NCBI GenBank assembly: GCA_029862185.1 | Contig: JAOTXX010000008.1 | Location: forward strand, 8,909-72,908 | Length of the DNA stretch: 64,000 bases | Source: Myxococcales bacterium | GTDB taxonomy: Bacteria > Myxococcota_A > Polyangia > Polyangiales > Houyiibacteriaceae | Reading direction: 5' to 3' | Shown: positions 817 to 37,724 of the stretch, in pieces | How positions within the stretch are numbered: position 1 is the first letter of the stretch | How the letters are laid out: the number at the start of each line of letters is the position of its first letter | Translations under genes and position numbers: made by a program | Notes under the pieces: model-generated | The model's database searches: none | The model's input: only the letters and a program-made list of their open reading frames with translations | What the model was told of the DNA's origin: nothing

Positions 817-2468
817 GATGGGCCTTTGGCCTCGACCCACTTCGCGAGCTTTTCGCGTCCAATTTTTGCGTTGTGCCGGATGTCGACCGGGAAGCTTGGG
901 TGCCGGACGAAGCGCGATATGCGATTCGCCTGCGGATGCGCCCGGGCGATGTGGCGCAGCTGCTGCTCGATCTCCGGCCAGTCGCCTCTGCCGTGTCCCG
1001 GCTCGAGCTCTACGCAGAGCGTCGGCAGGCCTCCGGGACCGACCAGCGCGGAGCGATAGACCGCCGGGTGGGCGTCGAAGACCTTTTCGCATGGGACCGT
1101 GAACATCGTCGCGCCGTCGACGAGCAGGCGGTGACTCTTGCGCCCGCAGAACCAAAGGCGTCCTTCGCGATCGCGCCAACCGACGTCGCCCATGCGGTGC
1201 CAAATGAAGTCGCCGTCTCGGATCTTCGATAGCACCGTATTGTGTTCATCGTCGAAGTACGCCTCGGTCACCATCGGGCCGCGAACTGCGATCTCGCCGA
1301 TCTCGCCGTCTTCGAGCTCCAGATCGTCCGAGAAGGTTGGGATCGCGTCGTCGCTGATGCGAATCACCTTCACCTCGATGTCGGGCACGGGGACGCCCAC
1401 GCAGACACCGGCTCCCTTTTCTGTCTCGGCCCAGGTCGTCGCGACGATTTCGCGTCCCGCCAGACAGGCCACCGGAAGCGACTCGGTAGCGCCGTAGGGC
1501 GGAAATACATCGCCGTCGCTGGGCAACATTGCATGCCAACGGACGAGCGTTTGCCCGGGCATCGGTGCACCGGCGGCGATCACACGGCGCAAGCTCGGCA
1601 GCGTGATGCCATGCTGCTCTCCGTATCGGCCCACCGTGTTCAGCAGCGCAGGTGAGCCGAACATGGTCGTCACGCCGAAACGCTGAATGGGCTCGATGAT
1701 GTTTCGCGGCTCGACGCTGGCCGGCCGGCTCGGATCCATGTCGGGGATGACTGTCGTCATGCCGAGCGCCGGGTCAAAAAGCGCGAAGAGCGGAAACGTA
1801 GGCAGGTCGATTTCGCCGGGTTCGATCGAAAACATCTCTCGAATCGCTTTGACCTGCGCCAGGAAGTGACGGTGCCGGTAGACGACGCCTTTGGGCGGGC
1901 CGGTGCTGCCCGAGGTGAACAGGACCGCCGCAACTTCGTCGCCTTGGGTGGGCATCGGCATGTCACCTGCGGCGAGGCGTTTCGCGCCGAGCGTTTCGAC
2001 CTGGGCGAGCGTGTGTTGTGCCATGCCCCAGCCGCCAACGGTAATCGTTCGTTCGACTGTTGCCCGGGCCCAGCCAAGGGCGATGCGAGCCGCGTGCGCG
2101 ATTGGAATCCCGACGAATGCTCCGGGCTGCGCGCGCGCCAGGCACTTGCTCAGCCCTTTGATGCCCAGACCCGGGTCGATCATCACCGGAACCACGCCGG
2201 CCTTGAACATCCCAAAGGTGAGGGCGAAGAGCTCAGGGCTGGGTCGCACCATGAGCGCGGCGCGATGACCGCGTTCGATGCCAACCGCGTGGAGGCCGGC
2301 GGCGATTCGGCTGCTGCGTTCGTCGAGCTCTCGATACGAGACCTTGGTGTAGATGAGGTCGCCCGCCGCGTCGCGTTGCTTGGTCGGAAAAAAGATGGCT
2401 GTCGCATCGGGCTGCGTCGCGGCCATCTGCGGCAGTACGTCGGCGACCGTGGAAAGCTCGGTGCTCAT
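813..2468 (-). CDS. oleC: OleC, olefin beta-lactone synthetase (AMP-binding enzyme)
   Basis: LFTSGSTGPPKGV adenylation motif, PPYGATESLP, HRMGDVG, VDIRHNAKIGREKL C-terminus typical of OleC. Start set at MSTELS (2468), which overlaps the oleB stop (ATGA). Confidence 0.92.
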   Translation of the reverse strand: MSTELSTVADVLPQMAATQPDATAIFFPTKQRDAAGDLIYTKVSYRELDERSSRIAAGLHAVGIERGHRAALMVRPSPELFALTFGMFKAGVVPVMIDPGLGIKGLSKCLARAQPGAFVGIPIAHAARIALGWARATVERTITVGGWGMAQHTLAQVETLGAKRLAAGDMPMPTQGDEVAAVLFTSGSTGPPKGVVYRHRHFLAQVKAIREMFSIEPGEIDLPTFPLFALFDPALGMTTVIPDMDPSRPASVEPRNIIEPIQRFGVTTMFGSPALLNTVGRYGEQHGITLPSLRRVIAAGAPMPGQTLVRWHAMLPSDGDVFPPYGATESLPVACLAGREIVATTWAETEKGAGVCVGVPVPDIEVKVIRISDDAIPTFSDDLELEDGEIGEIAVRGPMVTEAYFDDEHNTVLSKIRDGDFIWHRMGDVGWRDREGRLWFCGRKSHRLLVDGATMFTVPCEKVFDAHPAVYRSALVGPGGLPTLCVELEPGHGRGDWPEIEQQLRHIARAHPQANRISRFVRHPSFPVDIRHNAKIGREKLAKWVEAKGPS

Positions 2469-3355
2469 TCGGCGACTCCCAAAAAGCTTCGTACGAGTTG
2501 CTCGATCTCCGAAGGCGCGTCTTCCAGGACATAGTGACCGCAGTTTGGAAACTGGTGAACCTCCGCATCGGGAAGGGCGCTCTTCCAAACCCTCAGGAAA
2601 TGTTCGTCGAAGACGAAATCGCGGTCGCCCCAGCAGATCAGCACGGGCCGGTCGTTGAACTGATGGAGGTGCTCGCCCACCTCGCGAACCAACGAAAAGC
2701 TCGGGTCGCTTTCTTTCAGTGGGATGTCCTGCACGAAGCGGAGCACCGCGCGGCGGTGATCCCAGCTGTCGTAGGGCGCACAGAGGCCGTCACGCACGTC
2801 TTTGGGAAGCCTGACTCGCGTGACGGCAAGCCGCGTTGCACCCCGTGCGAACGCGTTGAACCCGCGCACCAAAAGCGCGCCCGCCTTGGTGTCACGGGCC
2901 AACCAAACGGAAGCTGGGAGGCGCTTGGTCGACGGCATCGGAAACGCCGCGGTGTTCAGCACGACCAAGCGCGCGACGAGATCGGGGTGCCGATGGGCCC
3001 AGCCCATGCCTATCATTCCCCCCCAGTCGTGGACCGCAAGCGTGATGTCTCGGAGGCCAAGCTGGTCGACCAGCGCTTCGATGTCCTCCACCCGCTGCGC
3101 GAGTCGGTACGAGTAGGTGTCATCGCCTGGCTTATCGGACTTTCCGCAGCCGATGTGATCGGGCGCGATGACGCGATGACTGATGCGCAGCGCCGAGATC
3201 AATCGTCGCCAGTAGAACGACCAAGTCGGGTTTCCGTGAAGCATCAGGACCACCGGGGCGTCACGAGGCCCCTCATCGACGTAGTGCATCCGATGCCCGG
3301 ACGGAACCGTTAGCCAGTGAGGCTCAAACGGATAGAGCTCGTCGGAGACCTTCAC
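2465..3355 (-). CDS. oleB: OleB, beta-lactone decarboxylase (haloalkane dehalogenase-like alpha/beta hydrolase)
   Basis: LHGNPTWSFYWR, VHDWGG nucleophile Asp, GHYVLED; located between oleA and oleC. Confidence 0.92.
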   Translation of the reverse strand: MKVSDELYPFEPHWLTVPSGHRMHYVDEGPRDAPVVLMLHGNPTWSFYWRRLISALRISHRVIAPDHIGCGKSDKPGDDTYSYRLAQRVEDIEALVDQLGLRDITLAVHDWGGMIGMGWAHRHPDLVARLVVLNTAAFPMPSTKRLPASVWLARDTKAGALLVRGFNAFARGATRLAVTRVRLPKDVRDGLCAPYDSWDHRRAVLRFVQDIPLKESDPSFSLVREVGEHLHQFNDRPVLICWGDRDFVFDEHFLRVWKSALPDAEVHQFPNCGHYVLEDAPSEIEQLVRSFLGVAE

Positions 3356-9709: not shown

Positions 9710-11335
9710 ATGCCTGAAGGAATATTCGATTTCATCGTCGTTGGTGCCGGTTCGGCGGGCTGCTGCCTTGCGAATCGACTCTCCAGAGACCCGGAGAATC
9801 GGGTTTTGCTGCTCGAAGCTGGCGGCAAAGACAACAGCCCGCTCATCAAGATGCCGATCGGCTTCACGCAGCTCATGTACGACCCGAAGGTCACCAACCT
9901 CTACAAGACCGAGCCCGAGCCGCACCTGAACGACCGGGAGATGAGCGTGGTTCGGGGTCGGGTGCTCGGCGGCTGCAGCTCGATCAACGGAATGGTCTAC
10001 ATGCGCGGCCAGCGGCAGGATTACGACGACTGGGGCGCGCTCCCAGGCTGCGGAGGCTGGTCCTACAAGAACATGCTTCCCTATTTCAAGCGCTCTGAGA
10101 ACTTCGAAGCTGGGCCGGCCAACGAGTATCACGCCAAGGGCGGGGAGCTGAACGTCGCCCACGTGCAGATGCAGTACGAGATCAGCGATGTGTACATCGA
10201 CGCCGCCGTGAGCGCCGGCATTCCGCGCAACGACGACATCAACGGCGAGAAGCAAGATGGCATCGGCTACGTCCAGGTGAACATGAAGGGTGGGCAGCGT
10301 TGGAGCTCGGCCGATGCGTTTCTCAGTGCCGATGTGAAGAGACGGCCGAACCTCACCATCGTGATCAAGGCAGTGGCTCAGCGCATCTTGCTCGATGGCA
10401 AGAAGGCCGTTGGGATCGAGTACCAGGACGCCAAGGGCAAATTGCACCAGGCCAAGGCGAGCCGTGAGGTCGTGCTCTCGGCGGGCACGTACAACTCGCC
10501 GCCGCTGCTGGAGCACTCGGGGATTGGCAACCCGGAAGTGCTTGGCGAGCTCGGGGTCGAGGTGAAGCATGCGCTTCGCGGGGTCGGCGAGAACCTTCAG
10601 GACCATTTTCAAGTCTGGGTTCAGCAGGGCGTGAAGACCAAGCACTGCCTTTCGGAGGACGGGAAGTTCCCGAAGGTCGTCTTCGCGGTTCTCAAGTACA
10701 TGTTCGGCAAGAAGGGGCCGCTCACGATGCCGGCCTGCAATGTGGGTGGTTTCGTGCCGAACGAGGGCGCGGAACGGCCGATTTTCCAGATTCACTTCAC
10801 GCCTGGCGCCGGCGGCATGGACGCCGACGGCAAGATGGTGGCGACGCCCGACCCCGGCGTGAATTCGACGGTGTGCATCATTCGCCCCACGTCACGGGGC
10901 AGCGTCCATGCGCGCAGCACGGATGCCAAAGCGTTTCCGAAGATCATCCACAACTACTTGTCGACCGACCACGATCGCGAGCTCGCCATCGAAGGCTTCA
11001 AGCTGCAGCGGAAGATCTACCAGTCCGAAGTCTTCAAGCCCCACGCGACATACGAAATCTTGCCGGGCGACTCGGTGCAGACCGACGATGAGATCCTCGA
11101 ATTCTGGCGGAACGAAGGGATGAGCGTGTACCACCCGGTTGGCTCGTCGAAGATGGGCGCGGCGGATGACCCGATGGCCGTGGTCGATAAAGAGCTGAGG
11201 GTGCACGGGGTTGAGGGGCTGCGGGTTGTGGATGCTTCGATTTTCCCGCTCTTGCCCTCAGGGAATACACACGCGCCGACGGTTGCGGTCGCGGAGCGGG
11301 CGGCGGATTTGATTCTTGGGAATCCCATGGCGTAG
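9710..11335 (+). CDS. GMC family oxidoreductase (choline/alcohol dehydrogenase-like)
   Basis: DFIVVGAGSAGC, GRVLGGCSSINGMVY, GENLQDH, YHPVGSSKMG, GNTHAPTVAVAERAAD. Confidence 0.93.
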   Translation: MPEGIFDFIVVGAGSAGCCLANRLSRDPENRVLLLEAGGKDNSPLIKMPIGFTQLMYDPKVTNLYKTEPEPHLNDREMSVVRGRVLGGCSSINGMVYMRGQRQDYDDWGALPGCGGWSYKNMLPYFKRSENFEAGPANEYHAKGGELNVAHVQMQYEISDVYIDAAVSAGIPRNDDINGEKQDGIGYVQVNMKGGQRWSSADAFLSADVKRRPNLTIVIKAVAQRILLDGKKAVGIEYQDAKGKLHQAKASREVVLSAGTYNSPPLLEHSGIGNPEVLGELGVEVKHALRGVGENLQDHFQVWVQQGVKTKHCLSEDGKFPKVVFAVLKYMFGKKGPLTMPACNVGGFVPNEGAERPIFQIHFTPGAGGMDADGKMVATPDPGVNSTVCIIRPTSRGSVHARSTDAKAFPKIIHNYLSTDHDRELAIEGFKLQRKIYQSEVFKPHATYEILPGDSVQTDDEILEFWRNEGMSVYHPVGSSKMGAADDPMAVVDKELRVHGVEGLRVVDASIFPLLPSGNTHAPTVAVAERAADLILGNPMA

Positions 11336-11340
11336 AGATC

Positions 11341-11388
11341 GGGGCGCGGCGGAACGCGACGCGGGGGTGCGACGAACGGCTCGCGGGC
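11341..11388 (+). repeat. Degenerate partial copy of the left arm of the structured repeat
   Basis: GGGGCGCGGcggaacGCGACgCGGGGgTGCGaCGAACGGctcg resembles GGGGCGCGGAAAGAGGCGCGACACGGGGCTGCGTCGAACGG (left arm of copy 2). Confidence 0.55.
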
Positions 11389-11596
11389 GTACCGGGGCGC
11401 GGAAAAAACCCGTCACGGGGTTCCATCGAACGGCTCGGCTTGCAGATGTGGTCGGAAGCACTTGGGGGCCTGGACCACGCAAGCCGAGCCTCGGAACTCG
11501 CGCCAATCGGGGGTGGTTGCTGTCTTGCCGATTGTCACTCGTTACGTCGACTCCACCCCATGACGGGTTTTTTCCGCGCCCCTCTATATGGAGACA
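11389..11596 (+). repeat. Structured intergenic repeat, copy 1 (candidate ncRNA or REP/MITE-like element)
   Basis: 22-bp terminal stem 11394-11415/11561-11582, 12-bp inner stem 11432-11443/11479-11490, 44-nt core 11497-11540 identical to the reverse complement of 21658-21701. Confidence 0.85.
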
Positions 11597-11655
11597 GGAC
11601 CACCAACCTTCCCCAAACGGTAGGCGCCAGCGTCAATGTCAGCGCCGCGCCAGCG

Positions 11656-12318
11656 CTACCCCGCCACGAACGTCCGCGCGCCCTCTGCGAGTGCGTCGAT
11701 GAGGCTCGATGGCTCCGTCCGAACCATCGGTGAAAGCTCAATCTGCACGCCGCTCAGCCGTGGCACATTGACCGGGTTGTCGGGATGCACGCCTCGAATC
11801 GGCTTTGGGATCACCGAGAGGTCGTCGACGACGACCGCATTGGGGAGTGCGGGGCGCAGCGCTTCGGCAAGGTGTGCCGCGAGCGCGCGATTGCGTCCAC
11901 CAAGCATCACATGGTGGAGAAACGCCTTCCGGCGAAAGCCATGTACGGTCACCACGATGTCGACGACCTCGAAGAACGCTTGCAGCTTGGGGGACTCATC
12001 GGCTCGAAAAAGCGAAGACGGGATGTGCCAACGGAGATTCGGCGGCTGCCGTATCGCATAGAACGACGCGTCGGCTTTGTACGCCGCCTTTTCGGCAATC
12101 GCATCGGTCTTCGTCTCCAGGCTTCCGCCATGAAACGCCATGAAGCCAAACCGAGAGCGCAGGGCAAGGTCCTCTTCGACGCCACGGCAGGCCAGCAGCT
12201 CTGCGAGGTAGCGCCGCTTCCGGTTTTCGAATGGGCCCTTGGGCGCGGGACGGGTCACCGCTGGGGTGTAGCACTCGTTTGGGCGGGCTCCCGCGAACCT
12301 GAGCCTGGCCTCGTTCAA
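11656..12318 (-). CDS. Poly-gamma-glutamate hydrolase family protein (PghP/DUF867-like)
   Basis: AFHGGSLE, HIPS, TVHG and GVHPDNPVN..GVQIELS motifs; true start may be downstream of 12318. Confidence 0.8.
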   Translation of the reverse strand: MNEARLRFAGARPNECYTPAVTRPAPKGPFENRKRRYLAELLACRGVEEDLALRSRFGFMAFHGGSLETKTDAIAEKAAYKADASFYAIRQPPNLRWHIPSSLFRADESPKLQAFFEVVDIVVTVHGFRRKAFLHHVMLGGRNRALAAHLAEALRPALPNAVVVDDLSVIPKPIRGVHPDNPVNVPRLSGVQIELSPMVRTEPSSLIDALAEGARTFVAG

Positions 12319-18975: not shown

Positions 18976-21210
18976 TCAGGAGCGGCGGCTGATCATGAGC
19001 GTGGCGGCTTCGGTTCTTCTCGCGACGCGCAGAGCCAGCTCGCTGAAGAGGCGCTTGCCGCGCTGGTGGCGGAGGCCAAGGATGATGAGGTCGTTGGGGC
19101 CTGCTTCCTGCGCGAGCGCTTCGACGATGTCGGTCGACTCGAGGAGCTTGGCGTCGGGGGCGCCGTAGGTTTCTTCTTTGGCGAACACGCGCAGCTCCCG
19201 TTCGAGCTGAAGCTTGTTGGACCTCGGCAGACTTTGCTTCGTGGCCTGGACGAAGCGCACGCTCTTGAGCCCTGCACGGCCAAGGCTCCCGAGGAGGCGA
19301 GCGCGGAGCGCGTCGTGACCTCCGCGGCCGCCCACGGGGACGATGATCTTCGTGTCGGCGTTGATCGACCAGTCCTTGGGAGCGCGCAAGACGACCACAT
19401 CGCAGTCGACGGCGTTCAACAGCTGCTCGATGTGGGCTACGTTGCTGTGCTCCTCGAGTGAAGAGAAGCCGATGAGGAGGCTCTCGCAGTCGCGAGTCTG
19501 CGCGATTCGCGCGATTTCTTTCCAGGGGTCGGTCGCGATCGTCATGAGGGCCTCGGGTGCGTGCCCTGCTGTGAGCGATGCGGCCATGGCTTGCTCGACG
19601 ACGTGCTGTGCGTCACCCAGTGCTTTGGTCGTCTCCGCCTCGGCCGCTGCGAAGTCCGCGGGGCGGCGAACGACGGTGAGGAGAAGGACCCGGCCTACGA
19701 TTGGAATGGCGAGAGCGTTGGCGAGTGTGACCATGCCAACGGCGCTCGTAGGATTGGCGACCGGCACCAGGACGAGCGGGCTTCGGCCTCGCAGCACACC
19801 GAGATGGGGGTCTCGCGCTTCGGCGAAGGCATCCACCGCCTGGGCGCGACCTTTGAACAAACCGAAGTAGAGAATCACGCCGAGGCCTAGCCAGACGACC
19901 GCGATGGCGCCGGCAGCGGGGACGGCGAACGCTTGGTACAAGGCGAGCAGCGAACAGGCCAGACCCCCGATCACTGGAATCGCAGGAAACCAAGGGGTTC
20001 GAAACGGAGCCTTCACCCGGGACCGCTGGCGCGCCAACAAGTTCGTCCAGTGGACGAGCGCGAACGAAATCAGAAAGATGAGGCTCGCGGCTGCGCCCGC
20101 GGATGAAACCGAAGGCACCATTAAGAGGATGAACGCCATCGCCAGTGCGGTGGCGTAGATCGCCATGACTGGCGTGCCTCGAGTTTGGTGGCGCTCTTGA
20201 AGAACCCGAGGGAGGGTCCGGTCGGTCGCCATTTGCAGGGAAATGCGGCTTGCTGCGAGCACATTGGCCGAAAGCGCCGAGAGGGTGGAGAGCAACGCAG
20301 CGACGACCACCAACCAATACCCGAGCGGGCCGGCGAAGTTGAACGCGGCATCGGCCATGACGGTGGCGGGGCGTTCGCTGCTCATTTGGCCGATGCTTTC
20401 GCCTGGCGAAACGCCCACCGTAGAGATGAGAAAAAGCAGCGGTATGTAGACGGCCAACGCGATTCCCAAAGACATCAGCATGGCACGCGGAATGTTTCGT
20501 TCGGGCTTCTTCACCTCGCCGCCGACGGTGGCGATCAGGTCGAAGCCTTGAAGGGCGATGAAGGTGAAGCCCATTGCGGTGAAGAGCCCGCCTGTCCCGT
20601 GCTCGAAGAAGGGAGTGAGGCCGCCTTCGACCGTGCCTGAAGGGGCGCCGACGAGCGCCCAGACCGCCAAGAGGATCAGCACGCCGAAGACGACCAGCTT
20701 GCCGACCGTTTCCCACTGACCCCCGCCTTCGCTCTTTCGAACCAGCATGAGGCTGTATGCCGCGGTCGCGAGCACCGCGAGGCCGAGCACCGTGGAACGG
20801 CTGCGCAACCATGGGGGTTGCTCGGCTCCGAATGCGTTCCAAATTTCGCCCAGCGCCAGCACGGCGTACTCCGCAAAGCCCAGGGCGTACAAGACGCCCG
20901 CGACAATGTACGCAAACCAGAGCACCCAGCCCACGACAAATGCGGCCCGCACGGTAAGGACCTTCTTTGCAAACGTGTAGGCGCCCCCAGACTCGGGAAA
21001 CATCGACGACATCTCGGCGAAGCTCAGGGCGGTGATGACGGCCACAACGCCATTGAGCGCGAACGCCAAAATGGCGCTCGGCCCGGTGGCCTGAAACGCA
21101 GCCCCGGCGAGGACGAGGATGCCGCCGCCGACGATGGCCCCAACGCCTACGCCGATCGCTTGGATCGGACCAAGACGCCGCGTCTCCCCTCCCTTTGATG
21201 CCGCCGACAC
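18976..21210 (-). CDS. APC-family amino acid permease with C-terminal universal-stress (USP)-like domains
   Basis: GVGAIVGGGI TM1, PESGGAY, QGFDLIATVGGEVKKP; C-terminal VLVPVANP ... VDCDVVVLR ... IIVPVGG. Confidence 0.9.
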   Translation of the reverse strand: MSAASKGGETRRLGPIQAIGVGVGAIVGGGILVLAGAAFQATGPSAILAFALNGVVAVITALSFAEMSSMFPESGGAYTFAKKVLTVRAAFVVGWVLWFAYIVAGVLYALGFAEYAVLALGEIWNAFGAEQPPWLRSRSTVLGLAVLATAAYSLMLVRKSEGGGQWETVGKLVVFGVLILLAVWALVGAPSGTVEGGLTPFFEHGTGGLFTAMGFTFIALQGFDLIATVGGEVKKPERNIPRAMLMSLGIALAVYIPLLFLISTVGVSPGESIGQMSSERPATVMADAAFNFAGPLGYWLVVVAALLSTLSALSANVLAASRISLQMATDRTLPRVLQERHQTRGTPVMAIYATALAMAFILLMVPSVSSAGAAASLIFLISFALVHWTNLLARQRSRVKAPFRTPWFPAIPVIGGLACSLLALYQAFAVPAAGAIAVVWLGLGVILYFGLFKGRAQAVDAFAEARDPHLGVLRGRSPLVLVPVANPTSAVGMVTLANALAIPIVGRVLLLTVVRRPADFAAAEAETTKALGDAQHVVEQAMAASLTAGHAPEALMTIATDPWKEIARIAQTRDCESLLIGFSSLEEHSNVAHIEQLLNAVDCDVVVLRAPKDWSINADTKIIVPVGGRGGHDALRARLLGSLGRAGLKSVRFVQATKQSLPRSNKLQLERELRVFAKEETYGAPDAKLLESTDIVEALAQEAGPNDLIILGLRHQRGKRLFSELALRVARRTEAATLMISRRS

Positions 21211-21280: not shown

Positions 21281-21331
21281 CACGTTCACAGGCACGTTCA
21301 CTGGCACTGACACTGCCGCTGACGCTGACGC
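21281..21331 (-). repeat. Degenerate hexamer tract (CGTCAG/TGTCAG/TGAACG)n
   Basis: Minus strand cgtcag cgtcag cggcag tgtcag tgccag tgaacg tgcctg tgaacg tg; a similar tract lies at about 11625-11656 (+). Confidence 0.6.
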
Positions 21332-21601
21332 GGATGTGGTGGGGGGCGGGTGGCGCCGTGCGGCTTGTGCTGCCGCGTGTGTTGGGGGGCGGAGTGTTGG
21401 ACTGGTTGTGTGGTGAGGTTTGATTGAACCGCCCCGCCCACCCCCACCCGTAATCCTCCCTGGCGCGGCGGTCGCTTTGCTCTGCCTTGCCGGCGCGTAC
21501 GCGCCGGGCTTCGCCCTTCGGGCTCGCGCTGCCGCGCATGGCTCGGGGCGGTCTTTTGGAACGTGTCTGGATGGCTCCGTACGGAGGAACGCGGTTCGAC
21601 A

Positions 21602-21810
21602 TGTCTCCGTATGGAGGGGCGCGGAAAAAGGCGCGATATGGGGCGGAGTCGACGTGTGAGTGACAATCGGCAAGACAGCAACCACCCCCGATTGGCGCGA
21701 GCTCCGAGGGGCGCCTTGCGTGGCCCCAGGCCCCAAGCCCCTCCGGCCACCTTTGCAAGGCGCCCCGTTCGACGCAGCCCCGTGTCGCGCCTCTTTCCGC
21801 GCCCCGGTAC
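21602..21810 (-). repeat. Structured intergenic repeat, copy 2
   Basis: Terminal stem 21805-21785/21636-21616 and 12-bp inner stem GGGGCGCCTTGC/GCAAGGCGCCCC; same 44-nt core as copy 1; begins 5 nt after the RND stop codon. Confidence 0.85.
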
Positions 21811-21815
21811 GTCCG

Positions 21816-24800
21816 CTAGTCACCCGCGTAGACGAAGTCTTTGAAGCGGACGCGGTACAAGAGGGAGTAGAGCAACGGGACGAAGCCGAGCGTGAGGAAT
21901 GTGGAGAAGAGGAGGCCGGCCATGATCGCCACCGCCATGGGCTGGAACATTTCTTCGCCGCCCACGTAGAGCGGAATCAAGCTGCTGATCGTCGTTGCGG
22001 TGGTCAGCATGATCGGGCGGAAGCGCTGCTGTGCCGCTTGAATGACGGCCTGGGGTGGACTCAGGCCGTTCTCGGTCATTTCGATGTCGATGCGATCGAT
22101 CAGGACGATTCCGTTGTTGACGACGATGCCAGCCAACGAGACGATGCCGAGGAGGGTCATGAAGCCGAAGTAGCCGCCAGGCAGGCCTGACCAGTGGACG
22201 GCGAGCAGGCCGATCGCAACGCCTACGAGCGCAAAGAGGATTGTGGCCAGGACGATGGCGGGTTTGCGCAGTGAGTTGAACTGCCAGACGAGCAACATGA
22301 GAATTACCATGCCGGCGATCGGCAGCTTGGCTGCAATGGACGCGTTGGCATCGCCGGAGCCTTCGACTTCGCCGCCTAGCTCGTAGCGGTAACCGATGCC
22401 CCAGGTCTGCTTCTGTTCTTCGAGCCAGGGGGTCAGCTCGGCAATGACGTCGAAGGGTGTCACGCCAGCTGCGGTGTCGCTGTCGACGGTCACCGTGGGG
22501 TAGAGGTCGCGCCTCAAGATTTCGGATGCCTCCCATTCGAGCTTGCCGCTCGCCACCTGCGTAAGCGGAACCGAGCTGCCGTCTTGTGCAAAGACACTCA
22601 GCGTCGCGAGCCGGTCGATGTTGCGTCGGCCTTCGGCGACCGACCGCAAAACGACCGGAATGGTTTTGTCGTCTTCTCGATAGCGGGTGGTTTCATAACC
22701 ACTCAGGAAGGTTTGAAGAGACGTCGCGACGTCTTCGTTGGTGATGCCGGCGCGACGCGCGCGGTCGCCGCTCACTTCGATGAGCAGCTTTTTGACCTTC
22801 GGACCCCAGTCGTCGCCGACATTGCGTGTGTCCGGGCGGTCGTTGAGCCATTGCTTCACCTGGTCGGCAATCTCGAAAACCGTGTCGACATCCTTCCCCG
22901 AGATCCGGACCTCGATTGGCTTTGTCACCGGCGGGCCGTTGCCGAGCGGCCGTATGTGAGGGCGAATATCGGGGTATCGCTCGGTCATGTAGCGCTCGAG
23001 CTTCTCCATCACCTCGGGGACGACGTCGGCCGTCGATGTGTGAAACATGGTCTCCGAGTAGCGAGGCCTGGGGGCGTCCGGGTTGTATGTGAGGGTGAAG
23101 CGCGGGGGGCTCATGCTGATGAAGGAGGCCCAGTGGGTTACGCCTTCTTTGCTTTCGTCGCCGCCAAGCTCGCTCTCGATGAACGAGTCCATGTCTTTGA
23201 TCATCGCCTCGGTCGTCCCGATCGAGGTGCCCGGGGGGAAGGTGAGCTCTGCCACGAAGAAGTTGCTGGCTTGTTGGGGGAAGAAGAGCGCTGGAACCAG
23301 CGAGAAGAGCTTCATGCCTCCGTAGAAACCAGCCGCCGCGATCGCAATGCTGAGAATGGGGTGGCGGAGAACCGCGAGAATGCTCCTCCGGTAGAAGCGA
23401 TAGAACCGCGAGTTGAATGGCTCTTCGACCTTCTTCGGCTTGAGGAACTTCACGCAGAGAACCGGAATCATGGTGAGCGCGAGGACCCAAGAGACCAGCA
23501 AGGTGATGGTCACGACGGAGAAAAGCACGCCGGTGTATTCGCCGACGGCGGATTCGGCGAGCCGGATCGGGAGGAACGCGGCGGCTGTGGTGAGTGAAGC
23601 GATCAAGAGCGGGACTCTGAGCTCCTTGGTCGCCGCGAGCGCGGCAGGGACTCCATCTTCGCCCTCGGCCATCCGCACCATGATCGACTCCGAGACCACG
23701 ATCGCATTGTCGACCAGCAAGCCGAGCGCGATGATTAGGCCCGCAAGCGACATCTGATCGAGTTGGATGCCGAAGAGGCTCATGACCCACATCGCGATGA
23801 TCATCGTCGCCGGCACTAGCGTCGCCACCACGAAGCCGGTTCGTAGACCCAGGGTCAGCAGCATGATCAAGAGAACGATCACGACGGCCTGAAAGACACT
23901 ATCGACGAAATCGCCGACCTTCTTTTCGACGATGGTCGGCTGGAAGTAGGTCTTATAGAAGTCGACGCCGTGGGGGTATTGCTCTTGGATGAACTGGAAG
24001 AACCCCTCGAGCCGTTCTCCGAGTTGAATCAGGTTTCCCCCTTCGGCCATGGAGATCGCGAGCGTCAGGCCAGGGTGGCCGTCGATGCGAACGAGCCCTT
24101 CGGGCGGGTCGACGTAGTCACGGTAAATGTCGACGATGTCTTCCAAGTAGACGAGCTCGTCGTTCGTCGGCAGACGGATCACCGTTCGCTTGAGCTCATC
24201 GACCGAGGCGAAGTTCCCGCTAGGCTCGAGCGCAATCGATTCTTGTTCGACGTCGATTTCCCCGCCGGGCTGAATGATGTTGCGTTGCTGGAGGTTGTCC
24301 TTGAGAAACTTGGGCGTCATCCCGAGCTTGCTCAGCACGGCATTGTTGTACTCGACGAAGAGACGCTCTTCCTGGGCGCCGAGAATGTCGACTTTGGCGA
24401 CCGATTCAACGCGCAAGAGCTCGTCGCGAAGGTCGTCGGCAATGTCTTTGAGCTGCATGTACGAGAAGCCGTCGCCGGTCATGCTGAACATGATCGGGTA
24501 CACATCCCCGAACTCGTCGTTGACATTCGGTCCGATGATGCCCTCCGGCAAGTTCGGCGCGACAGCATCGACTTTGCGCCTCAGGTCGTCCCAGATGGGA
24601 CGCATCTCCTTGAACTCCTCGCGGATGTTCACATAGATGACCGAAACGCCCGTCCGGCTTTCACTGTTGACGAAGTCGAGCTCGGGGATCTCCTGGACGG
24701 CTTTCTCGATGGGGTCGGTGATCAGCTGCTCGACGCGCGCCGGACTGGCGCCCGGGAAATTGGTCGTGATCATCGCGGTCCGGATGATGAAACCGGGATC

Positions 24801-24908
24801 CATTTGGCGGGGTGCGTTCACATAGGCCCCGACGCCGGCGAAAATGAGAACGGCGATCAGCGTGCCCGTGACCGTGCGCCGCTCTAATGCGAACTCGGTG
24901 AGGCTCAT
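21816..24908 (-). CDS. RND efflux permease (AcrB/AcrD/AcrF family)
   Basis: 1030 aa, two large periplasmic loops, GLLVDNAIVV, QRFRPIMLTTAT. Confidence 0.93.
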   Translation of the reverse strand: MSLTEFALERRTVTGTLIAVLIFAGVGAYVNAPRQMDPGFIIRTAMITTNFPGASPARVEQLITDPIEKAVQEIPELDFVNSESRTGVSVIYVNIREEFKEMRPIWDDLRRKVDAVAPNLPEGIIGPNVNDEFGDVYPIMFSMTGDGFSYMQLKDIADDLRDELLRVESVAKVDILGAQEERLFVEYNNAVLSKLGMTPKFLKDNLQQRNIIQPGGEIDVEQESIALEPSGNFASVDELKRTVIRLPTNDELVYLEDIVDIYRDYVDPPEGLVRIDGHPGLTLAISMAEGGNLIQLGERLEGFFQFIQEQYPHGVDFYKTYFQPTIVEKKVGDFVDSVFQAVVIVLLIMLLTLGLRTGFVVATLVPATMIIAMWVMSLFGIQLDQMSLAGLIIALGLLVDNAIVVSESIMVRMAEGEDGVPAALAATKELRVPLLIASLTTAAAFLPIRLAESAVGEYTGVLFSVVTITLLVSWVLALTMIPVLCVKFLKPKKVEEPFNSRFYRFYRRSILAVLRHPILSIAIAAAGFYGGMKLFSLVPALFFPQQASNFFVAELTFPPGTSIGTTEAMIKDMDSFIESELGGDESKEGVTHWASFISMSPPRFTLTYNPDAPRPRYSETMFHTSTADVVPEVMEKLERYMTERYPDIRPHIRPLGNGPPVTKPIEVRISGKDVDTVFEIADQVKQWLNDRPDTRNVGDDWGPKVKKLLIEVSGDRARRAGITNEDVATSLQTFLSGYETTRYREDDKTIPVVLRSVAEGRRNIDRLATLSVFAQDGSSVPLTQVASGKLEWEASEILRRDLYPTVTVDSDTAAGVTPFDVIAELTPWLEEQKQTWGIGYRYELGGEVEGSGDANASIAAKLPIAGMVILMLLVWQFNSLRKPAIVLATILFALVGVAIGLLAVHWSGLPGGYFGFMTLLGIVSLAGIVVNNGIVLIDRIDIEMTENGLSPPQAVIQAAQQRFRPIMLTTATTISSLIPLYVGGEEMFQPMAVAIMAGLLFSTFLTLGFVPLLYSLLYRVRFKDFVYAGD

Positions 24909-37582: not shown

Positions 37583-37724
37583 CACGCGCGGTTGGCTACA
37601 CCCGTTTTGCTGCCGCGGCATTCGCTGCGCTTTGCCTTGCCGGCGCTTTGCGCCGGGCTTCGCCGTTCCGGCTTGCGCTGCCGCCTGCTGTCTTGGGGGG
37701 GGCTTCGGTGCCCCGCTCTTCCCC

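Follow-up and report, generated by a model that had tools for sequence, protein, structure and literature searches.

A family of branched, non-coding repeats was identified from a 64,000-nucleotide (nt) stretch of DNA of a Myxococcales bacterium (GenBank assembly GCA_029862185.1, contig JAOTXX010000008.1, positions 8,909 to 72,908), which is referred to at its full length as the window. Two copies lie in the window, at 11389-11596 on the plus strand (copy 1) and at 21602-21810 on the minus strand (copy 2), where an earlier note made from the sequence alone had placed them; they are 83% identical over ~208 nt. Both are members of a large, previously undescribed non-coding repeat family of uncultured Polyangiales. 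The ~190-nt structured unit is termed module 1 (M1), a second repeat found in the same mosaics module 2 (M2), and the strand read in the earlier note the proposed strand. M1 folds into a three-way junction in which the sequence of the closing stem is interchangeable provided that pairing is kept, and the inner junction is conserved. With modest confidence, M1 is read here as the structured head of a modular, non-autonomous intergenic repeat resembling REP (repetitive extragenic palindromic), BIME (bacterial interspersed mosaic element) and ERIC (enterobacterial repetitive intergenic consensus) sequences.

The window's own genome (G000, a 4.29 Mb assembly; G-labels denote genomes and C-labels contigs) contains ~30 M1 copies on 20 contigs when it is searched by BLASTN, truncated and tandem copies included. 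What had been described as a two-copy repeat is thus a high-copy, order-wide family. Relatives of copy 2 with 98-99% identity are on C57, C97 and C147, and copy 1 has one (95%) on C88. BLASTN was positive in 20 of 24 congeneric species, with 0 to >50 copies each. A covariance model built from a genus alignment of 48 diverse copies gave ~70 full-length matches in the congener G005 (100 rows, some of which are reverse-strand echoes) and 53 rows in the congener G023. With the same model the family was found in 31 of 151 Polyangiales genomes, representing 12 of 76 genera and six families, whereas a phylum-level sample of 251 genomes searched with stricter filters gave matches in 1 of 177 genera, that of the window itself. 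A pattern scan of one genome per species matched solely metagenome-assembled genomes of uncultured Polyangiales or 'Myxococcales' (e.g., SG8_38 and the MFD, FCS and EBRS3 bins).

The statement that the element belongs to no recognized Rfam family was confirmed: the whole window gave only tRNAs at the gathering threshold, and both strands of 11300-11700 gave no Rfam 15 match at E <= 1. Rows up to E = 10 were at chance level (E 3.1-9.1; 15-17 bits against gathering scores of 55-67). A full-text literature search found no description of such repeats in Myxococcota.

The fold of copy 1 on the proposed strand has an energy of -108.3 kcal/mol (z = -6.3), and on neither strand of this copy did any of 200 shuffled sequences fold as well. 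RNAalifold analysis of the 48 diverse copies yielded a three-way junction composed of P1, in which the two ends pair as the closing stem; P2, a hairpin of 12 + 6 base pairs (bp); and P3, a hairpin inside the core. All three stem differences described earlier for the two window copies preserve pairing. P1 is AAACCCGTCA/TGACGGGTTT in copy 1 and GAGGCGCGA/TCGCGCC in copy 2, the inner 12-bp stem is GGCTCGGCTTGC/GCAAGCCGAGCC in the former and GGGGCGCCTTGC/GCAAGGCGCCCC in the latter, and the next stem is GTGGTC/GACCAC and GTGGCC/GGCCAC, respectively. The 44-nt core at 11497-11540, previously called invariant, is identical in these two copies but shows 88-100% identity among the copies of the genome, and one pair of its own hairpin covaries (G-C, U-A, C-G).

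Covariation is very strong throughout the family, and the proposal that the fold is genuine and conserved, its stems changing in a compensatory manner around a core that is kept, is borne out by comparison with shuffled alignments and slid partners. In the genus set of 48 copies, 95.9% of helix cells are paired; shuffles give 86.7% and slid partners 38-48%. Changes on both sides occur at 28 of 48 pairs (13 in shuffles, 6-12 with slid partners), and 190 cells are changed on both sides with only five changed on one side. Remote copies have the same architecture as the genus copies, with 95.4% paired cells against 64.2% in shuffles and 542 double-change cells against 144, in an alignment fitted to the model. 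Their P1 sequences are mutually unrelated and still complementary. The islands GGGACG, CTTGCA...GCAAG, CTCGGC, GCCAA-stem-TTGGCAC and GACGCCCC are conserved across genera, and the P3 stem occurs in these genera as CAATCGG, CAACCCG, CAAGTGG, CAACCGG, CATTCG and CAACACG.

Complementarity of this kind could also arise with no selected fold, if M1 were a selfish quasi-palindrome maintained by DNA processes alone: repair templated on the hairpin, template switching, and gene conversion from arm to arm and from copy to copy. Hairpin-driven gene conversion had been named beforehand as an outcome that would undo the case for a functional fold, and part of it agrees with the data: nearly all compensation is by Watson-Crick pairs, the pattern of a DNA palindrome, with GC<->CG transversions among the changes. 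Whole stems have been swapped between subfamilies, giving recombinant copies, and a common subfamily carries an inverted tetranucleotide in one P2 arm (CTCG in place of the pairing CGAG), as template switching typically leaves. Such processes would, however, drive the repeat towards a perfect palindrome with a symmetric mismatch spectrum. Instead, bulges, unpaired motifs and the asymmetry in the order of P2 and P3 have been retained in six families, and A·C mismatches exceed G·T mismatches 5-8 fold on one strand. These conserved features and the strand-asymmetric wobble argue against the quasi-palindrome, which is considered very unlikely.

The strand-specific pairing constraint falls on the reverse strand, that is, the reverse complement of the proposed strand, and both the mismatch spectrum and the folding energies correct the earlier note on this point. 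Single mismatches in the helices of 114 genus copies, read on the proposed strand, comprise 148 A·C and 18 G·T; 45 remote copies have 40 and 9, respectively. Within consensus pairs the A·C to G·T ratios are 31:6 (genus) and 25:10 (remote), over 12-14 sites. An A·C mismatch on the proposed strand is a G·U or G·T pair on the other, and the selected fold is therefore assigned to the reverse strand. The reverse strand is more stable in 108 of 114 genus copies and in 35 of 45 remote copies. It reaches -119.2 kcal/mol (z = -10.0) in copy 1 and -127.0 (z = -8.0) in copy 2, for which the proposed strand gives -125.4 (z = -6.6), and its fold shows a clean junction and an extended P3. Transcription-coupled deamination of the coding strand predicts the opposite bias, so that the bias is read as selection on the reverse strand. 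Replication-strand bias is uninformative: 19 of 26 copies have the proposed strand on the G-rich side, which is accounted for by gene co-orientation.

The following features belong to the two copies and their surroundings in the window.

11333-11335, plus strand: TAG stop of the GMC oxidoreductase gene (9710-11335), abutted by copy 1 (open reading frame list; Pfam GMC_oxred_N and GMC_oxred_C).
11341-11385, plus strand: 45-nt stump of an older copy of the 'GCGGAA' subfamily, comprising the 5' arm of P1 and the first part of the junction without P2 and ending in CTCGCG (sequence; a full copy of the subfamily is present at the orthologous site of G022).
11386-11393, plus strand: GGCGTACC, which forms the 5' extension of copy 1 and its boundary (111-copy flank profile).
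11394-11582, plus strand: copy 1 of M1, from GGGGCGCGG to CCGCGCCCC, the two ends of which pair as the closing stem P1.
11432-11490, plus strand: P2 hairpin of copy 1, with the 12-bp stem GGCTCGGCTTGC/GCAAGCCGAGCC, then GTGGTC/GACCAC and a variable loop; the P2 boxes CTTGCA and GCAAG are kept across the order.
11497-11540, plus strand: the '44-nt core', consisting of the junction CTCGCG and the P3 hairpin with the conserved loop GGGTGGTTGCTGTCTTG.
11504-11510 and 11528-11534, plus strand: P3 stem arms CAATCGG and CCGATTG, respectively; the stem covaries across genera.
11583-11596, plus strand: 3' tail of M1, type A, TCTATATGGAGACA (consensus TCCATACGGAGACA); this type was never seen ahead of M2 copies that lack M1.
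11597-11655, plus strand: linker and hexamer-like remnant (GGACCACCAACCTTCCCC...GGCGCCAGCG...; from sequence), reaching the stop of the convergent poly-gamma-glutamate hydrolase gene (11656-12318, minus strand).
21816-21818, minus strand: TAG stop of the AcrB-type RND transporter gene (21816-24908, minus strand), abutted by copy 2.
21616-21805, minus strand: copy 2 of M1 (GGGGCGCGG ... CCGCGCCCC), preceded by GTACC at 21806-21810.
21602-21615, minus strand: 3' tail of copy 2, TCCATACGGAGACA.
21536-21601, minus strand: linker of type C (TGTCGAACCGCGTTCCTCCGTACGGAGCC...), common to copies on C57 and C161.
21416-21535, minus strand: M2, a separate ~120-nt repeat (GCGGCAGCGCGAGCCCGAAGGGCGAAGCCCGGCGCG...GGAGGATTACGGGTGGGGGTGGGCGGG; coverage profile and copy list).
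21286-21415, minus strand: C-rich segment with the mosaic's (GCCAGY)n hexamer tail, ending ~75 nt before the next gene (amino-acid permease/Usp, 18976-21210, minus strand).
37610-37705, minus strand: partial M2 copy with no M1 ahead of it.

Copies of M1 multiply in bursts, appear and vanish at gene-end gaps, leave stumps, nest within one another and are replaced in place. An empty site with convergent stops 7 nt apart (TAG-GCGCGTC-TCA) is found in G000; the same site is filled in G005 by a ~520-nt mosaic, in which TAGGCG is joined to TACC-GGGG...GTCAAA and this in turn to CGCGTCTCA. At the copy-1 locus, the 3' end of the GMC oxidoreductase gene, G022 (97% protein identity) has a full M1 of another subfamily together with M2, G020 has M2 only, G017 and G016 have hexamers only, and no recognized module is present in G023 and G009. 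The G000 locus keeps a stump of the G022-type copy, the CTCGCG end of which is joined to the GGCGTACC of copy 1, and the same nested join followed by a new copy recurs on C97 and in G005. A burst in G005 comprises ~19 copies with 91-98% identity to copy 1 at different loci, and the orthologous places in G000 are empty sites, 11-26-nt stumps or sites of other subfamilies. Stumps left beside stop codons measure 11-47 nt.

Orthologous pairs of copies belong to different subfamilies in 18 of 32 cases. In the 14 same-subfamily pairs, element identity is 0.907 compared with 0.751 at the third codon positions of the adjacent gene; copies that stay in place thus change ~2.6x more slowly than these neighbouring positions. 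The 14 pairs contain 33 compensated double changes and 57 single changes.

M1 is not the discrete ~190-nt locus that had been supposed but the head of a ~500-nt mosaic, in which a linker (three types occur), M2, a C-rich stretch and (GCCAGY)n hexamers usually come after it. The shared flanks reported for the two window copies are present but belong to the repeat unit itself: the flank profile places the 5' boundary of M1 at about -4 (TACC), where conservation starts, and the 3' tail is 14 nt long, TCCATACGGAGACA or TCCATTCATATCCA. M2 is present in ~42-50 copies genome-wide, more than M1, and occurs with and without it. The partial M2 at 37610-37705 is one such case, and the modules therefore occur independently. 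Inverted M1 doublets occur between convergent genes.

The placement of M1 in sense orientation just after a stop codon was noted earlier. Both window copies do abut stops, but this is largely a matter of geometry and is weak evidence for an RNA. A sense stop codon lies 1-15 nt from the 5' end in 47 of 94 copies, and one was found at the 3' end; the rest of the mosaic occupies the 3' side of M1, which therefore cannot abut a gene. When 73 copies with enough flanking sequence were classified, the neighbouring genes were convergent for 37 and divergent for 4, and co-directional gaps contained 16 copies in sense and 13 in antisense orientation. One copy docks 28 nt behind a tRNA gene, and some of the 'antisense' co-directional cases actually sit behind a tRNA gene. 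Unoccupied convergent gaps have a median length of 27 nt and 45% are <= 20 nt, as estimated from crude gene calls; the gaps are so small that anything inserted there touches stop codons. Homing to stop codons with a fixed sense polarity was rejected on three grounds, namely the mosaic on the 3' side, the mixed orientation and the tiny convergent gaps.

Several other features of the mosaic were observed. M2 (GCGGCAGCGCGAGCCCGAAGGGCGAAGCCCGGCGCG...CCAGGGAGGATTACGGGTGGGGGTGGGCGGG) has its own REP-like hairpin, GCCCGGCGCG-N3-CGCGCCGGC. Arrays of (GCCAGY)n begin right after stop codons in several congeners (L126, L128 and L133, which are orthologues of the GMC locus; in the window, 21286-21340, minus strand), and inverted hexamer arrays also flank whole mosaics, e.g., CACTGGCGCTGGCGCTGCAGCTACC before M1 on C57. 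A segment of 8-10 nt separates the M1 tail (GGAGACAGGAC) from the beginning of M2 (TTCCC.AACGG) and varies by locus (window 11597-11620; linkers L148-L166), even among the G005 burst copies with 91-98% identity to copy 1; it may come from the target, unless M1 and M2 arrive separately. A third family of palindromic repeats, ~150 nt long (GAGAACGGCTCGGGATGGGCAGCACAGGGATTGGGTCGAGCCTAGCCGTGGG...CCCAATCCCGAGCACG.CCGTCGCGAGCCGTTCTC), is often located 3' of the type-B tail of M1 and was found outside the window (G000 C23:36910-37070, C27:61930-62090, C83:22350-22510, C20 and C153).

Variants of M1 itself were also detected. A longer variant of ~255-265 nt, which scores 80-105 bits with the model and probably contains an insertion of ~50 nt, occurs at G005 C6:149582-149838 and C7:336398-336651 among other sites and at G023 C4:140916-141177. 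Tandem arrays of full M1 with periods of ~300-690 nt are present at G094 C4:416103-417070 and at G073 C10:497428-498318, C7:620179-620689 and C4:452411-452937; the G094 array contains three equal-scoring M1 copies at 379-nt spacing. Internal-deletion derivatives that retain only the P1 arms form hairpins of 40-114 nt (G000 C68:3374-3488, C63:145-185 and C107:4259-4313) and, taken alone, would resemble ordinary REP-like hairpins. Several copies lie at contig ends (C92, C97, C147 and C168). The repeats fragment assemblies of these uncultured myxobacteria and can be mistaken for regulatory RNAs.

An RNA role would explain part of this picture. The M1 fold would then be primarily that of an RNA, a repeated non-coding module transcribed from the reverse strand, with multiplication secondary, as in ERIC or Correia repeats. 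It might act as an insulator or 3'-end structure that blocks antisense run-in from the opposite convergent gene, as a stabilizer or processing site, or as a multi-copy small RNA. Wobble tolerance and an energy advantage on one strand, conservation of unpaired loop and junction nucleotides across genera, the slower change of orthologous copies relative to neutral sites and a position where transcription units end, a tRNA gene among them, are all consistent with such a role. However, G·U-type pairs on the favoured strand make up ~1.3% of helix cells, which is very low for an RNA family, and compensation involves many transversions with almost no one-sided intermediates. The orientation relative to co-directional flanking genes is mixed (16 against 13), no promoter-like site was found, and the sole terminator-like match lies inside the upstream gene and not at copy 1. 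The family has no Rfam relative, and its absence from some congeners and its burst multiplication are unlike a housekeeping RNA. An RNA is therefore held to be a possible but doubtful account of the fold.

The structured head of a mobile mosaic remains the preferred reading, and we judge it somewhat probable. The elements would spread by copy-and-insert or by recombination between copies. A structure-specific enzyme acting in trans would recognize the folded inner junction on the reverse strand, most likely as single-stranded DNA (ssDNA), with the junction as the recognition determinant and P1 as a mere clamp. Elements would survive mainly in the tiny promoter-free gaps behind genes, and survival in such gaps would explain why copies hug stop codons. 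Any influence on transcripts nearby, of the sort seen with REP or ERIC elements, would be a secondary matter. A mobile structured element or ssDNA substrate had been among the candidates named at the outset, and it is still among the viable readings; the evidence of turnover speaks for it, but the suggested RAYT transposase does not.

A bolder version of the preferred reading would make M1 a new class of structure-addressed element, in which the conserved three-way junction, folded on a single strand, would be all that an undescribed recombinase or nuclease-ligase needs to recognize, or would itself be a catalytic or guide nucleic acid. The promoter-less mosaic would then be inserted at gene ends without terminal-repeat recognition or target duplication, and the CTCGCG join would mark the site of cleavage and joining. 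This version is thought unlikely.

Several points weigh against the mobile head. The one-strand wobble bias is equally expected of an RNA, and gene conversion among copies could produce slow divergence and compensated changes without recognition by an enzyme. No enzyme was found among the Y1/RAYT and IS110 genes examined, and no unit of insertion sequence (IS) size carries the P1 ends. No target-site duplication was demonstrated, as matching flank k-mers were not above shuffled pairings, in a test that a constant short duplication such as TA or CG would escape; the empty/filled pair is compatible with a 2-nt CG duplication or with none. The gene calls are crude (open reading frames based on GC content at third codon positions), and the alignment of remote copies was fitted to the model.

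The idea of a RAYT partner failed because the sole Y1 gene of the genome is flanked by unrelated repeats and the presence of Y1 genes does not track that of M1. This single-copy, RAYT-like Y1_Tnp gene (G000 C146:92933-93259, minus strand; outside the window) is flanked by an inverted repeat of its own (GGGACACTCTC / GAGAGTGTCCC), present 4-8 times in the genome, and no M1 is present on C146. The M1-free congeners G003, G008, G014 and G021 carry 1-7 Y1 genes, and no Y1 gene was found in the M1-rich congeners G004, G006, G016 and G017; the assemblies are 80-100% complete. The C146 gene and its repeats may be a separate small REP-RAYT system. It is located directly downstream of a gene for an MglA-like small GTPase.

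Other candidate mobilizing systems were rejected. Retro-mobility would require a reverse transcriptase, and most carriers lack one: RVT_1 was found in just 4 of 26 congeners, and the 22 without it include G000, G005 and the two genomes richest in copies. PF01548 (IS110) is present in only 10 of 26 congeners and absent from G000 and 15 others. The only IS110 adjacency is an IS110-family (DEDD) gene within the M2 of a mosaic, which is not an M1-bearing IS end (L227, G005 C13:1-5000). This gene lies at ~1940-3320, near a ...GGAGGATTA / CGGGTGGGGG segment, with approximate boundaries. IS110 and IS1111 elements target REP sequences in other bacteria, and the L227 arrangement recalls them. Autonomous partners were sought as pairs of P1 ends 0.3-3.5 kb apart in G000, all of which were chance matches or the 40-114-nt internal-deletion derivatives; no split M1 ends were found in the covariance-model scan of G005, G023 and G094.

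A classical MITE (a miniature transposable element with inverted repeats), that is, an IS deletion derivative mobilized by a DDE transposase at TA or CGTACG-like targets with a 2-bp duplication, is regarded as highly improbable. M1 has terminal inverted repeats of at least 20 nt, a minority of copies read TA-CCGGGG...CCCCGG-TA with palindromic CGTA...TACG flanks, and the empty/filled pair permits a 2-nt CG duplication. However, the termini are variable, and wholly different between subfamilies, around a conserved interior, which is the opposite of a transposase-bound MITE. There is no excess of matching flank k-mers, TA is found on the 5' side in less than half of the copies, and no IS with M1 ends occurs in G000, G005, G023 or G094. 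A transposase mechanism on double-stranded DNA also does not explain the strand-specific mismatch bias.

REP, ERIC and Correia repeats shape bacterial genome architecture and gene expression. To our knowledge, REP-RAYT is the only one among such small structured repeats with a known mobilizing enzyme. With hundreds of copies in at least six Polyangiales families and a shared branched fold, M1 is an unusually informative case: an interchangeable closing stem, a conserved junction and a clear strand preference together suggest that a folded single strand is recognized and not the terminal repeats. If a partner enzyme were identified, or the fold were shown to work as RNA, a new mobilization mechanism or a new RNA family would follow.

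REP, BIME and REPIN sequences are, like M1, extragenic hairpin repeats that are rich in GC and present in high copy number (Nunvar et al. 2010, PMC2817692; Bertels & Rainey 2011, PMC3116915). They form mosaics with other motifs behind genes, show within-genome bursts and have compensated stems and presumed single-strand recognition, all as in M1. They lack target duplication, and none was demonstrated for M1. REP and BIME elements and REPINs are mobilized by RAYT (Y1 HUH) transposases (PMC2817692; PMC3116915). A REP or REPIN is a 20-40-nt hairpin or doublet with a conserved GTAG-type 5' tag, whereas M1 is a ~190-nt three-way junction with no such tag. In REP-RAYT systems the Y1 gene is flanked by the same repeat, whereas the sole Y1 gene here has unrelated repeats and does not co-occur with M1.

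ERIC (IRU) and Correia (NEMIS) elements are transcribed imperfect palindromes of 100-170 nt (Delihas 2011, PMC3184786). They share with M1 a similar size class, a long imperfect palindrome and a defined polarity, as well as an intergenic location, often in 3' untranslated regions, and a copy number that varies among close relatives (PMC3184786). Their termini are conserved, whereas M1 has variable termini and a conserved branched interior. Correia elements generate a TA duplication and carry an integration host factor (IHF) site, whereas no duplication is demonstrable for M1.

Retrons are well known in myxobacteria, and the retron msr-msd non-coding RNA is similar to M1 in its length of ~200 nt, its outer stem of variable sequence formed from two ends and its two inner hairpins. 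A reverse transcriptase is adjacent in retrons, whereas none is adjacent to M1, which occurs as 30-70 dispersed copies per genome. The bridge RNA or seek RNA of IS110 and IS1111 occupies the non-coding end of a DEDD recombinase element, and M1 is not so placed.

Integron attC sites, including the Vibrio cholerae repeats, resemble M1 in the priority of structure over sequence, the use of one folded strand, compensation by Watson-Crick pairs only and a position behind open reading frames. They form cassette arrays next to an integrase, whereas M1 is branched, ~190 nt long and dispersed behind core syntenic genes; the two window copies are 10 kb apart and inverted, not clustered as in attC arrays, where at least 2 sites fall within 4 kb. 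No R''/R' boxes (RYYYAAC/GTTRRRY) were seen at the M1 ends when the aligned ends were read by eye, not by an attC model. The likeness to attC is thus one of analogy only, and the kinds that appear closest to M1 by comparison are REP/BIME/REPIN-RAYT, ERIC and Correia elements.

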